Below are positions 10,101 to 16,100 of a stretch of DNA of 64,000 nucleotides, piece after piece. Numbering within the stretch: position 1 is the stretch's first letter; the number at the start of each line of letters is the position of its first letter. The DNA comes from a plasmid. A program made the position numbers. The stretch lies in sequence record NZ_CP095281.1. The stretch is one strand, 5' to 3'.

Positions 10101-13100
10101 AGCGGATCACCATTCGCTCTCTGGTCCAGCGCCCGGCCTGCATGATCTCCAGGGTGTTGTATCCATCGGCCGCCAGATCCTGGGACGCTCCCACACGGGC
10201 AGAGTGCCCAGACCAGCGCGGGATGCCCAGGCGCTCGAGATCCAGCTCCATCCACGCCTTGGCAAAGATATTCTCCACGGGGTTTGAAGCCCAATGGGGC
10301 GGCAGCTGATGGAGCGGGGGAGGGCTGCCGCGCTGCGCTTGCCTGCTGGCGGGTGTGTGACGGCGAACTGATGCCATCGCTTACCGCCCAGCCGGATCCA
10401 ACCGCTCACTCGACGAGGGTGGATGGTTCCCAGTGAGTTCGAAGTGAGATGGATGAGGGAAGTGGGTGAGTACGGGCTGTAATGTGTATCCCCGCTCAGG
10501 CCTCGCTTCTACGGGGCTTTGTTTAATTGGTGAGCGGCCAATGCCCGCCCCAAATCCGGCCATCAAGGGCAACCTGGATCCTCCTGCTTGCAGCACTGCA
10601 ATTTTCCGCGAGAATAAGCGGGGCCAGTGGCCCCGCTTCTGTTTCTGAGAGGGGGCGCTCAACATAGCCCCCCTGTCGTCATGGCGACCACTGGCCAGGT
10701 CTTGACGACGACCGACAGAGTGCTGCAGCCGCTCGGGGCACCCCGCTGGTCAGCCCACCCCTACCTCTCCGCGGTGGTGCGAGACCTGATCCGGCTGGCG
10801 TGCTGCTGGGCCATGTCCCCGGGCTGGACGGCAGACAGGGGGGGGTATCACCTGGTGGACGGCCCGGTCCGGCGGCCTGGCACTCAGGAGGGAGTGATCG
10901 AGGGGAGGAGCAAGTTGCAGTGCTGCAACCGCCCGGGGCCCCCTGCTGGCCAGTGACTGCACCGAAATGGAATCACTGGTGGGCCAAGGTTCCACCCAGT
11001 AGCTGCGCGATCTGATCTAGCGGGACAACTGCCCCGCCTTGTTGTTGAAAATTTGACATGGATGCTGCCGGTAAGTGCCCCTGCCGCGCTGCGCTTGCCT
11101 GCTGACATGTTCGTTGCGGCGAACAGAAGCCGCATCTCAATGTCCAGCTTGCACAGGTATAATGGATGCAACGGCTTGCTCCAGGGAGGCAAAACTGCCA
11201 CGGTTTGTTGAGCGATCCCATGCCCCTCCATCGAGACAGCGAACGGTATATCTGATGCCAGATGGCCAGTACTTGAACCATTCTTCTCTATGTTCAGCAT
11301 TGCTGCTACCAATGTCTGACCATTCACAAGTCTGTATATATGGCATATCCCACCAGTGTTCTAGTTCTAAAGGATCTCGATTCTCATGGGGAGTTGAATC
11401 GAAGTCATCCCGTTGGTAAGGGTTAATCGGGATCCTATCTGTTGCCCAATTAACCTGGTTAGAGTAGTAATGCTGTGGAAGATATACACCCACTTCATCT
11501 GCACCATTGTCGTGTTTGTGATGTTTTATCATAGGAAATACTCTAGGTTAGATTGATATTAATCATCCCATAAATGCCAAAACTTTAATAATATCCTGTG
11601 GGACTCTCCCTGTTAATATAAGGAATTTCCTCCAAATACCATATGGCACTTTTGCCTCACCGGATTTGAACTCCCGTATACGCCTATCACTAGAAAGGCC
11701 AAGCAAGAATGCCAGTTTTTTATCAGTGTTATATTCAGGGAAATGGTGCTGGAAATGTCTGAAGTATGAACCGACGATGTCAGGATGTGGTGGAGCCCAA
11801 CCTTCATTTTCACGAAGTAAATGGTCAGAAGGGAGCGTCCATTCGACGATCTCTGACTGAGGGGGGAGTTTAGGGGCAAGGAGATTGGCTTGTAGCTGGG
11901 AGATCGCATCTCTAGTTGCAATTTCATACACTATGGATTTCTGTTTATCGATGCTAGGTAACTGAATTTTCACGATTTTACCCCTTTGTTGATATCATGG
12001 GGAGTATTCCTCCCCATGTGCTCTATCGCGGTGACAGTTCGATATTACGAACGTCTGATGCCCTGATATTGACTAAGCTCAATGTTCCTGTGGCTCTAGA
12101 TTCCCATTGGCCGGTTTGATGAATATGCATCAAACAGTAGTAAAGGTAATCGGGGAGTAGTAAGTCAAGCCGTTCCACCCTTATTCCCAGGTGTTCAGGA
12201 TTATAATCCCTTGTCACAGAGCCACAGGTTTTTAAAGAGCCTCGACGCACTAGCCAAAAATGAGCTTCTGGAAAGTTTGTCTTTATAGTCGCCAATTCAG
12301 AAAGTTTCATCTCGTTCCTATCGGTGGCATCTACTAGCCCCCTCAGGTGAGTGGCTTTCTGTGTGCCACCGTTAACTACATATTAGGCGGATTCCGCCTA
12401 ATGTTCAATGCGATTTTCACTTTTAAATAAAATAAATATTCAACTGTGAATAGGGTTGGTTTTAATTTAATAGAGGGGCGAGCACAACAGCAGTGCTGCA
12501 ACCGCTCGAGGTACCCCGCTGGCCAGCAGCCCCAGCCTCTCCCTGGTGGTGCGAGATCTGATCCGGTGGGGCGCTACTGGGCGATGGCCAAGTCCCCGGG
12601 CTGGACGGCAGACAGGGGTCATCACCTGGTGGGCGACCTGGTCCGGCGGCCTGGCTCCCTGGGGCGGGTGATCGCGGGCAGGAGCGAGCTGCAGTGCTGC
12701 AACCGATCGGGGCACCTCGCTGGTCAGCCCACCCCTACCTCTCCGCGGTGGTGCGAGATCTGATCCGGCTGGCGTGCTGCTGGGCCATGTCCCCGGGCTG
12801 GACGGCAGACAGGGGTCATCACCTGGTGGGCGACCTGGTCCGGCGGCTTGGCTCCCTGGGGCGGGTGATCGCGGGCAGGAGCGAGCTGCAGTGCTGCAAC
12901 CGCTCGGGGCACCTCGCTGGTCAGCCCACCCCTACCTCTCCGCGGTGGTGCGAGATCTGATCCGGCTGGCGTGCTGCTGGGCCATGTCCCCGGGCGGGAC
13001 GGCAGGCAGGGGCCATCACCTGGTGGGCGGCCCGGTCCGGCGGCCTGGCCCCAGGGGCGGGTGATCGCAGGCAGGAGCGAGCTGCAGTGCTGCAACCGCT

Positions 13101-16100
13101 CGAGGTACCCCGCTGGCCAGCAGCCCCAGCCTCTCCCTGGTGGTGCGAGATCTGATCCGGTGGGGCGCTACTGGGCGATGGCCAAGTCCCCGGGCAGGAA
13201 CGCGCTGCAGTGCTGCAACCGCTCGGGGCACCCCGCTGGTCAGCCCACCCCTACCTCTCCGCGGTGGTGCGAGACCTGATCCGGCTGGCGTGCTGCTGGG
13301 CCATGTCCCCGGGCTGGACGGCAGACAGGGGTCATCACCTGGTGGGCGACCTGGTCCGGCGGCCTGGCTCCCTGGGGCGGGTGATCGCGGGCAGGAGCGA
13401 GCTACAGTGCTGCAACCGCTCGGGGCACCTCGCTGGTCAGCCCACCCCTACCTCTCCGCGGTGGTGCGAGATCTGATCCGGCTGGCGTGCTGCTGGGCCA
13501 TGTCCCCGGGCTGGACGGCAGACAGGGGTCATCACCTGGTGGGCGACCTGGTCCGGCGGCTTGGCTCCCTGGGGCGGGTGATCGCGGGCAGGAGCGAGCT
13601 GCAGTGCTGCAACCGCTCGGGGCACCTCGCTGGTCAGCCCACCCCTACCTCTCCGCGGTGGTGCGAGATCTGATCCGGCTGGCGTGCTGCTGGACTATGG
13701 CTAAGTCCCCAGGCGTGGCGGTGCGCCGGGGTCATCACCTGGTGGTGCGAGATCTGGTCCAGTGGAGCATGCTGCTGGGAGATGCATCTCCCTAGACGTT
13801 GCTGTAAGGCAGTAAATGAGCCTGTTCAGCAACTCATGTCTGAGGGCCCATCAACCGAGCATAGTTGGAATGGAGGTTAGGAATGGAGGATTAAGAGGAT
13901 AGACTGATAAACGGATAAGATATTGAAACGGGCAGATAGTTTCTGCCCGTTTCATAGAGTCCTTTAGATAAGGAAATCGTCCAAGCTCTTCCCGGCGGCA
14001 ACAGCGTCAGCAATAACCTTTGGCATGCGCCCTTGACCGGTCCAGAGCTTTTCATTGCCATCATCGATATAACGGTATTTCGGGGGCCGGGGAGCTCGTT
14101 GTTTTTTCGTACTGGCAGCAGGGCCTGCAGGCACTGATGCAGGTATGAGTTCGCTCGGATCAATCCCAGCCTGTTTCAGGAGTTCTGTGTATTCAGCCAG
14201 TTTCTTTTGATGGTCTTCGCGGATTTGCATTTCCTTGAGCTCGGCTTCTTCGCGCTCTTCGAAAATAGTTTGAAATTTTTCGTGGACTTCCTTCAGTTGT
14301 TCAAAGGAGATTTCACGCAAAGCGGCACGAAGGCTACGCACGTTAAGCAGTACTTTAAGAAATTCGTTCATTATTGAATCATCCCCAATAATATGATCAT
14401 GGCTGTGTGGCAAAATCGAATGTTGATTTGATGGAGGAAAGTATCAGGTAGCAAAAAATAACTGTCAACAAAAAATAATCCTAGTTTGTTTAAACAATGA
14501 AATTTTAACCAAAAGATAATCTTCCTTCTGATTCAATGCGATAGCTTCTTATCTGGAGAGTTGGAACGTCGTAGAAAAATGTGATTTTAGAACCTCATTC
14601 GTGGGTTGTGTAACTAACTCTTCGAGTGTTATGTGTCGTCGTTTAGGTCTAGTTTCTTATGAGATCAGTACAGAGCGAATGGCTCTGATCATGATGCATA
14701 GATGTCTCATGCGGAGATGATAAATTGAGGGCCATAAATGTATTAATAGCCCCCAATTTCAACACTGTTCGTTGTGGTTACTGCAATTAATTACATCAAG
14801 CCAGAGATTGATTTCGCCAGTTGTTCTTCAAGAACTGGCTTGGCATCGGTGAATTCCAGGTTAACTTGATTTGCAGTGCTAACAATTCTTGTCTGGAACT
14901 TCTGACGCGATCCACTTTGCGTGCTGCTTTGTTCTTTAAAACCGGACGTCCCTTGTTTCAGCTTAGTGCGGTCATTGGTCACAACAGTGACCCCATTCGG
15001 GACGCGCTCAGCAATCTGCAGGTCGGTGATCATGGTGTACGACGTATCCTCGATCATTGCGTCGGCTGCGACACCGACCAGCGCCCCAACAAGCCCAGCG
15101 CCTACAGCTGCGCCTGTAGAACTGCTGTTGTAGCCGATGACAGAAGCGCCTGCTGCTGCGCCAAAGGCACCGGCCCCCCACCCTCCTTCCAACGCAGACT
15201 GTGCTGCTCTCAGGTCCATTTTTTCAACTTTGAGCACATTCGCCTGGATCCAGTAATGGGCATCTTCTGGATTAGAGATAACGCGATAGCCTTTTGCTGT
15301 TATTGACTGGACTACTTTCGAGTCAACCAACAGATCTTGGTTGGAGGTGTTTTTGATCTGTAGATAAACCGTTTTTTCGCTCGGAGACACCGGCTCCAAA
15401 AAAATGGTCTCGGACATTTTGGTTTGAACATCGAGGTTCCGTTTTGCGACGGCAGTATGCACCGCGCTGCAACCAGTTGTGAGTGCCAGAGTTGAGGCCA
15501 GTGTGATCGCAAGAATATGCTTGTTCATGGGTTCTCCAGGGGTCTAAAAAGTGGTTATGAATTCGTGCTGTTTATTCGAGCCATCCTTGAGTAGATGACC
15601 CAGCACGTTAGCGGTGTAAAGCAGGCGGATGCCCGGGATCTGTTGTAGAAACTCTTTCAGCCGAGGGAGTTCTCTTTTATCAATTGAGTAAACATCACCA
15701 GCTTGAGTTGAGAGCCGAGCCATCGCTGACTCTCCAGCCAAAATAATGCTCTCTGGAGCAGAATGGGCATGACTCACTAATTTGAATGAGGCGATTGCTC
15801 TATGAACTGGCGTGAGTTCCAACATGTGGTTATCACGGATGACAAATGTCATCTCTGTCCGTTGGGGTTCACAAAAATAGGAGATCGACAGATGGCATTC
15901 AGGAGGCAATGTGAGAGCAAAGGTGGCCCGAATAGTTTCTGGCGTATCGAGCCGCGAAGTCACAGGCGATTTCATCATTCGTAAACATCCAGGCCTTCAT
16001 CCAATTGGATGGTTAACGTGAACGGCTCTTCAAAGTATTGATAGAACGGATCCTCCGCTGGAGGGGGAACGGCCAGACCCAAGGAAAGGAACAAGTGTGC

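Follow-up and report, generated by a model that had tools for sequence, protein, structure and literature searches.

Satellite-like GC-rich arrays of pAsa8-type Aeromonas plasmids with one near-consensus copy of a predicted ParB/KorB-type palindrome per unit

What are long, GC-rich tandem repeats doing on the backbone of a conjugative plasmid? The question is raised by a 64,000-nt stretch of plasmid record NZ_CP095281.1 (hereafter, the window), in which a unit of ~200 bp is repeated in two arrays and a mini-array, each unit carrying a sequence close to a 14-bp palindrome, TTGCAGnnCTGCAA, that also occurs elsewhere on the plasmid. Most of the window matched, by megablast, the backbone of the pAsa8-type Aeromonas plasmids pAsa8 (NZ_KX364409) and pAsa8-b (CP039630), both of which encode F-type transfer genes and a MobF relaxase. 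We found the arrays to be lineage-specific, non-coding satellite DNA of these conjugative plasmids, with one near-consensus palindrome per unit. Judged from sequence, they are probably clusters of ParB sites; a benefit to the plasmid is unproven. To the fuller reading, in which such ParB/KorB site clusters would have a centromere, sink, or silencing role or would reflect a drive, we give a probability of roughly 0.5.

Anatomy of the arrays and conservation of their palindrome

Three repeat loci lie within the window:
12486-13795, plus strand: array 1, seven palindrome-bearing units, 71% GC
49151-50501, plus strand: array 2, seven units, 71% GC
10713-11010, plus strand: mini-array, one full and one partial unit (~1.5 units), with a perfect palindrome at 10915

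Unit bounds and counts were obtained by mapping a conserved anchor. Together with Tandem Repeats Finder, which placed array 1 at 12490-13693 (period 197) and array 2 at 49154-50388 (periods 202 and 187, higher-order period 374), this mapping (7, 7, and ~1.5 units) agreed with an earlier, sequence-only reading of three loci of GC-rich, ~200-bp tandem repeats. The units measured 201, 197, 196, 123 (truncated), 197, 197, and ~197 nt in array 1 and 203, 202, 187, 187, 187, 188, and 195 nt in array 2, the last unit of each being degenerate. They fall into two length classes, ~187 and ~200 nt, distinguished by a replaced internal segment, and alternation of these classes gives rise to higher-order periods of 374-400. 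All arrays share the plus-strand orientation and are ~72% GC overall, with interior units at 70-74.5%, 3' edge units at 64-66%, and 1-kb flanks at 42.5-44.5%.

The in-array form of the palindrome, CTGCAGTGCTGCAA (i.e., CTGCAG-TG-CTGCAA), was present in 5 of the 7 units of array 1 (e.g., 12689-12702, and at 12886, 13082, 13205, and 13599) and in 6 of the 7 units of array 2 (49356, 49558, 49745, 49932, 50119, and 50307). Variants occur in array 1 at 12488 (CAGCAG) and 13402 (CTACAG), and the first unit of array 2 has a perfect copy, TTGCAGTGCTGCAA (49153), so that perfect palindromes stand at the edges of array 2 and of the mini-array (10915). The sequence-only reading had held that both half-sites of an operator are kept in each unit; the left half-site is in fact not fully kept, having C for T at position 1. 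The resemblance is nonetheless beyond chance, since by our estimate a random 197-bp unit would contain a match with no more than one mismatch with a probability of ~4e-4.

To gauge conservation without favouring the palindrome, 87 unique units from four plasmids were delimited by an anchor unrelated to it and then aligned. Of the 14-nt windows in the unit, CAGTGCTGCAACCG had the lowest entropy, at 0.12 bits against a mean of 0.59 (rank 1 of 70), which makes the palindrome the most conserved part of the unit and upholds its likeness to an operator. Minor-allele percentages across its 14 positions were 0, 10, 2, 2, 0, 0, 0, 0, 0, 2, 0, 2, 0, and 2, and reached 43% upstream and 20% downstream in columns a few positions away. 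Overall, the minor-allele fraction was 0.016 within the palindrome and 0.185 elsewhere in the unit, with 6 of 14 and 141 of 173 columns variable, respectively. Between best-matching units of different plasmids, the palindrome had accumulated 28 differences where 83.5 were expected, in counts that are not phylogenetically independent. The conservation footprint stops at the edges of the palindrome and would fit a bound site; it does not distinguish benefit to the plasmid from a duplication drive by bound sites.

Could the units instead be conserved for a product? A repeat protein might be suspected from the many open reading frames (ORFs; 60-177 aa) with recurring peptides that are called on both strands of the arrays. 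However, the unit lengths of 187-203 nt (187, 196, 197, and 200-203) lose the frame from unit to unit, every one of the six frames of each array contains 3-11 stops, and the 177-aa array ORF, when compared with 5.8 billion proteins, matched only 36 unnamed Aeromonas ORFs that lack Pfam domains. A coding repeat protein, one finding that would have undone the earlier non-coding interpretation, is ruled out by frame, stop codons, and missing homologues. A structured RNA or single-stranded DNA element is likewise ruled out: Rfam returned no matches in the arrays, and although strongly negative minimum free energies were obtained, which GC-rich sequence would give in any case, the folding z-scores of units (+2.18, +1.34, and +0.88) were worse than those of dinucleotide shuffles on either strand. 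There were also no promoter-like or terminator-like sites inside the arrays and no promoters reading into them. Altogether, an array product of any of these kinds, be it a repeat protein, a structured RNA, or a regulatory RNA, is close to refuted, and we regard it as highly improbable.

Other candidates fared no better. The units abut head to tail without unique spacers, which rules out CRISPR, as had been argued before. Replication iterons do not match, the units being ~190-200 bp rather than ~17-22 bp and pAsa8 repA (1-777) lying far from all arrays. A crossover site for a serine or tyrosine recombinase is unlikely, given that the central dinucleotide varies among canonical sites and the arms are only 6 bp; conservation at the canonical sites ends within plus or minus 1 nt.

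The arrays occupy a particular kind of position, which is defined by the following features:
13924-13954, minus strand: terminator-like hairpin that follows the plasmid-borne hns (13964-14413, minus strand) and adjoins the right end of array 1
49080-49093, plus strand: intrinsic-terminator-like hairpin and T run after the MobF relaxase gene (45626-49075), directly before array 2
50502-50515, unstranded: perfect palindrome TTGCAGTCCTGCAA at the close of array 2, with a promoter-like TTGTCA-16-TATATT (50571-50598) ~55 nt downstream

In each case, the array takes up the space from a terminator to the following co-directional promoter. Array 1 is bounded by the hns terminator and by the AT-rich promoter region of minus-strand genes ending at 12310, and after array 2 come the operator and promoter that belong to the gene at 50614.

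A backbone-wide palindrome and its predicted ParB-family ligands

Within the window, TTGCAGnnCTGCAA was the most enriched of all 6-n-6 palindromes, with 15 perfect sites compared to 3 for the runner-up. Perfect sites numbered 29 in pAsa8 and 31 in pAsa8-b, against an expectation well below one (0.2-0.3 in shuffles), and the window contained 27 matches to TTGCAGTACTGCAA with up to two mismatches, compared to 0.21 expected from shuffles. The resistance region of pAsa8 (~5-34 kb) has no perfect site, all 29 being spread over the backbone. As in a KorB/OB-type network, the palindrome is thus over-represented on the backbone, is absent from accessory (resistance) DNA, and lies both beside promoters and far from them. 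Sites and the gene considered below are:
10588, 17022, 18831, 22012, 25180, 45348, 52543, 57470, 60698, and 63533: perfect palindromes outside the arrays
20316-20329, unstranded: canonical palindrome, 3 nt upstream of a -35 element (TTGAAA-17-TATTAT)
41037: perfect palindrome, 4 nt upstream of TTGCCT-16-TATAAT
42132: conserved non-array palindrome with one mismatch, TTGCAGCACTGCAT, the variant being at the outermost position
23611-25179, plus strand: leading-region ParB-family gene (Pfam ParB_N and KorB domain, GERRWRA motif)

The perfect sites at 17022 and 25180 adjoin stop codons, the latter abutting that of the leading-region parB, and others lie inside traG, trbC, and other genes. The outermost base, at which the array form departs from the canonical site, is also the one that varies at 42132. 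The TG centre of the array form belongs to the pyrimidine-purine steps (TA, TG/CA), which are found in 10 of the 13 perfect non-array sites of the window and in all 11 perfect sites of a related Vibrio plasmid.

We also observed repeated promoter modules at 20250-20420, 21950-22110, and 40960-41130, each with a palindrome followed by a -35/-10 pair (shared ctgcTATTAT/TATAAT). They share a GC-rich, gccggggtgcgtggcc-like element downstream, and those at 20316 and 41037 share an upstream element (ggcggccttatactcgcttgcgctgcgcgcgctcgt); their genes run in the direction of the presumed oriT at about 42.5 kb, which would be expected of a leading region.

Every relative found keeps the palindrome, down to a Vibrio plasmid with 34% ParB identity. 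It ranked top in pO23AP4 (7 perfect sites per 50 kb), whose partition ParB is 41% identical and which has no leading-region ParB, and again in the Vibrio fluvialis plasmid (11 perfect sites per 50 kb; ParB 34% identical, same architecture). In both pAsa8 and the V. fluvialis plasmid, a palindrome lies ~110-120 bp before the parB stop codon. NZ_CP140119, an unrelated P-type plasmid with only two small genes in common with the window, has no palindromes. The 14-bp site is deeply conserved across F-type plasmids of Aeromonas and Vibrio, and no account of it turned up in the searchable literature.

Which protein might bind it? The 23611-25179 product has a CTPase N-domain and a KorB-type DNA-binding domain (Pfam ParB_N, E = 1e-25; KorB domain, E = 1e-5), as a KorB/OB-type network would need, and resembles solved ParB, Spo0J, Noc, and KorB clamps (PDB ParB 6t1f, E = 2e-25; KorB 8qa8, E = 2e-14). 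Since annotated homologues are 479-481 aa, the true start of the gene is probably near 23734. Outside the window, pAsa8 carries a parA-parB pair whose ParB is a paralogue of the leading-region protein; the two are 34% identical, and their similarity extends across the helix-turn-helix region. We infer that this palindrome serves as parS/operator for the ParB-family CTPases of the plasmid, namely the ParA-linked ParB and its leading-region paralogue, with a KorB-type helix-turn-helix, and that it would function in the manner of KorB-OB on RK2; enrichment, conservation in distant relatives, a site within parB, the presence of a ParB/KorB-domain protein, and operator-like placement all point to this. 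In its enrichment, conservation, and placement the palindrome behaves like a ParB/KorB-type site, as would suit the palindrome-binding, ParB-like protein proposed earlier, and the operator link that had been drawn for the arrays is strengthened by the enrichment, the relatives, and the in-unit footprint.

Distribution, copy number and competing explanations

The unit is confined to the pAsa8 lineage. Only two PLSDB plasmids (pAsa8 and pAsa8-b) have it, and a scan of representative genomes yielded arrays on no more than three contigs, all from Aeromonas rivuli and pAsa8-like. Five metagenome contigs, likewise pAsa8-like, complete the set, and synteny holds throughout. A scan of viral contigs returned no array unit, and the GC-rich unit body had no homologue in the relatives. 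The repeats go unmentioned in the pAsa8 papers. Copy numbers, for which a comparison among related plasmids had been called for, were as follows:
Mini-array: window 2, pAsa8 2, pAsa8-b 2, A. rivuli 2
Locus 1: window 7, pAsa8 10, pAsa8-b 19, A. rivuli 6
Locus 2: window 7, pAsa8 9, pAsa8-b 16, A. rivuli 9
Locus 3 (just past the right end of the window): pAsa8 14, pAsa8-b 14, A. rivuli at least 6

Loci 1 and 2 vary 2-3 fold and the mini-array is constant at 2, while the 14 units of locus 3 have an identical spacing pattern in pAsa8 and pAsa8-b. The mean pairwise distance between units was 0.24, and for 48 of 87 units the nearest neighbour was at the same locus in another plasmid. This distance, together with the orthology of individual units across plasmids, indicates that the units are old. 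Rare variants comprised 57 strong-to-weak and 12 weak-to-strong changes, a count that reflects mutation input only, with no outgroup to part selection from biased conversion.

Two observations concern rearrangement at these loci. In metagenome contig RRZU013146614.1, right-flanking sequence of array 3 (pAsa8 105684-94930) is connected by ~2 units to left-flanking sequence of array 1 (47184-43866), which represents either a 47.7-kb deletion by recombination between direct-oriented arrays or a chimeric assembly. In pAsa8-b, array 3 and neighbouring tra genes occur at both record ends (3202-5792 and 81909-84504) with fragmented ORFs; the doubled ends are probably an uncollapsed assembly overlap.

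Two further GC-rich tandem families, which the sequence-only reading had not linked to the arrays, occupy the same backbone. One is a tandem array of ~10 units of 126-128 bp at 25248-26464 (74.8% GC; 12.6 copies in pAsa8-b), unrelated to the ~200-bp unit and without palindrome copies, which sits directly after the KorB-like parB, the perfect palindrome at 25180, and a terminator. Two short-read contigs (L017 and L018) end at its start. The other is a 99-bp in-frame repeat within traG (51770-52364; traG ORF 51061-54855, minus strand) that encodes 33 aa (AAERAPVVPANGQPQPMATDTPQLRTEQLAAPL) six times in the window and 13 times in pAsa8-b, at 72.9% GC compared to 45.8% for the rest of traG. By the test for protein-coding tandem repeats, the traG repeat is coding, whereas the ~200-bp units are not. 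A common origin of the ~200-bp unit with the 127-bp or 99-bp families, or by internal half-unit duplication, was rejected as local alignments were no better than shuffles. GC-richness is thus general to the backbone repeats and beyond the reach of the operator idea. GC-biased conversion among repeats is, speculatively, one cause of it, and possibly a recombination-driven conversion of this kind drives every backbone tandem repeat to ~73% GC.

Several features of the neighbouring DNA were also recorded. The 127-bp array and the relaxosome genes flank an accessory insertion of ~15 kb in the leading region (27046-42052; 50-63% GC) that has no pAsa8 counterpart. In pAsa8, a 6568-bp tandem duplication (55180-68315) includes ardA, an orf, the KorB-like parB, the 127-bp array, and a methylase gene. 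Positions 1-7235 of the window are not of the pAsa8-type backbone, being 100% identical to many KPC-2 plasmids (a widespread KPC-2 region). An 80-bp tandem repeat at 697-919, inside this region, matches the r1 and r2 motifs of DR2 from the IncU plasmid RA3 (oligonucleotide sequences, PMC9455977), so that, at its left end, the window resembles a pAsa8-type backbone to which an IncU-like rep region has been fused.

If the arrays are ParB/KorB site clusters, each would present 7-19 closely packed sites for ParB to bind or load at, placed in a transcriptionally silent gap between a terminator and the next promoter. Such clusters might provide additional centromeres or platforms for loading; alternatively, acting as a sink, they might set the ParB/KorB level required for silencing or for competition with related plasmids. 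Growth of the arrays would probably occur by unequal recombination or slippage, and the palindrome could be kept by selection or by a drive in which bound sites favour duplication. A more specific version, in which the arrays are "satellite centromeres" of the plasmid, i.e., amplified ParB-CTP loading clusters gained by one sub-lineage that build an oversized partition/silencing complex or act as a ParB sink, appears unlikely.

A number of results weigh against assigning the arrays a role through ParB. No long GC-rich arrays occur in relatives with the same palindrome network and a homologous ParB, which makes the arrays dispensable for the basic partition/regulation system. In pAsa8 they lie at 46.8-48.7, 76.3-78.2, and 92.9-95.6 kb, at least 10 kb from parA/parB (105108-106969), and the 2-3 fold spread in copy number among close relatives argues against a tight dosage constraint. 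Among 115 units from the four plasmids, ~23% have two or more left-half mismatches (e.g., CAGCAG), and ~175 bp of each unit, including the well conserved blocks ATGGCCAAGTCCCCGGGC and CATCACCTGGTGGGCG, are unaccounted for. The 127-bp array and the coding traG repeat indicate that GC-rich tandem expansion needs no palindrome. The difference counts between units of different plasmids lack phylogenetic independence, and the palindrome sequence is absent from the searchable literature. The low affinity that the sequence-only reading ascribed to the operator copies is a guess.

Much of this would be expected if the arrays were a neutral or selfish minisatellite seeded from an operator-bearing intergenic spacer and of no benefit to the plasmid. 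Since the palindrome reads the same in both orientations, two operators would be direct repeats able to seed unequal crossing-over, and the resulting arrays would persist wherever junk is tolerated, i.e., in terminator-to-promoter gaps, their length shifting by slippage or unequal recombination. Copy number does vary freely among close relatives (7/10/19/6 and 7/9/16/9), relatives with the palindrome system lack arrays, and there are two unrelated GC-rich families on the backbone, one of them palindrome-free. Perfect palindromes lie at array edges (49153, 50502, and 10915); the higher-order periods of 374-400 are typical of unequal crossing-over, and the edge units are degenerate with a lower GC content. 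However, the units are old (0.24) and yet the palindrome is more than 10-fold less polymorphic, with a footprint ending at its edges, a pattern that pure neutrality would not predict; moreover, locus 3 has 14 units with the same spacing in pAsa8 and pAsa8-b, and the mini-array has two units in four of four plasmids. We consider a functionless minisatellite less likely than the ParB/KorB site clusters. An alternative based on composition itself would make the ~72% GC blocks boundaries or insulators that exclude H-NS filaments or block supercoiling or read-through between modules, the palindrome being secondary. All arrays do run from terminator to promoter at module borders, the plasmid's own H-NS gene adjoins array 1, and all tandem families are ~73% GC against flanks of ~44%. 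Insulation leaves unexplained both the top conservation of the palindrome and the equal GC-richness of the coding traG repeat, and relatives that encode H-NS have no arrays; we therefore hold it to be improbable.

Should ParB bind the units, the arrays would supply at least 14 extra loading sites in the window and ~35-50 in pAsa8 and pAsa8-b, on top of 15-30 dispersed sites, and would constitute a natural experiment on how site number and clustering affect ParB-CTP clamp loading, long-range silencing, and partition incompatibility. A ParB sink, if real, could confer a partition-incompatibility advantage over the many Aeromonas and Vibrio plasmids that have the same TTGCAGnnCTGCAA site. If neutral, the arrays would be a clear case of old, hypervariable, and extremely GC-rich minisatellites on an AT-rich replicon. 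In practical terms, the 14-bp site spans carriers of KPC-2 and other resistance genes, and the arrays break short-read assemblies and probably mediate deletions, which affects the reconstruction and tracking of resistance plasmids.

Comparison with known repeat arrays and site networks

The centromere of the F plasmid, sopC, is made up of a 43-bp unit repeated 12 times in tandem; SopB, a member of the ParB family, binds the 7-2-7 inverted repeat found in each unit. Like sopC, the arrays are tandem direct repeats (7, 7, and 2 units) in which each unit has one short palindrome of ParB-type site, here a predicted one (CTGCAGTGCTGCAA or a close variant), and the number of repeats is variable and above need. 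Unlike sopC, their units are 4-5 times longer (187-203 bp), ~72% GC, and form higher-order repeats with ~175 bp of extra conserved sequence, and the arrays are not beside parAB but at three or four loci at least 10 kb from it, in the company of 15-30 dispersed canonical sites. Plasmids related to the pAsa8 type also manage without them. Since the arrays do not adjoin parAB and ParB binding is only predicted, we set them outside the sopC family, though they may work like a centromere repeat array.

KorB of the IncP-1 plasmid RK2 belongs to the ParB family and works as a sliding clamp dependent on CTP; it is loaded at scattered OB palindromes and silences promoters at short and long range (PMC11790492). 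The pAsa8-type system resembles it in having a 13-14-bp palindrome dispersed on the backbone, at some sites just upstream of a -35 element and at others inside genes, a protein with ParB_N and KorB domains, and a ParA encoded beside a ParB. The site is different, however (TTGCAGnnCTGCAA), there are two ParB paralogues, no KorA-like partner was identified in the pAsa8-type system, and RK2 has no 200-bp tandem arrays of OB. Closer in host is the IncU plasmid RA3 of Aeromonas, whose DR1 and DR2 regions, on either side of repA-repB, are assembled from 38-60-bp motifs named r1, r2, and r3; what these regions do was long obscure, and r3 is iteron-like (PMC9455977). DR1/DR2 and the arrays are both non-coding tandem blocks with alternating sub-types in the same host genus, but they are unrelated in sequence, and the 38-60-bp units of RA3 lie beside replication genes.

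In their overall organization, the arrays are also reminiscent of bacterial variable-number tandem repeats (VNTRs) or minisatellites and of alpha-satellite. Eukaryotic alpha-satellite, with its CENP-B box, is offered as an analogy only. Common to all are hypervariable copy number, periodicity of higher order, degenerate units at the edges, and, in each unit of ~170-200 bp, a single short box for protein binding, here predicted. The arrays differ from these elements in being plasmid-borne, extremely GC-rich for their context, and restricted to a single plasmid lineage, and in that their box corresponds to a site also used at other positions of the replicon.

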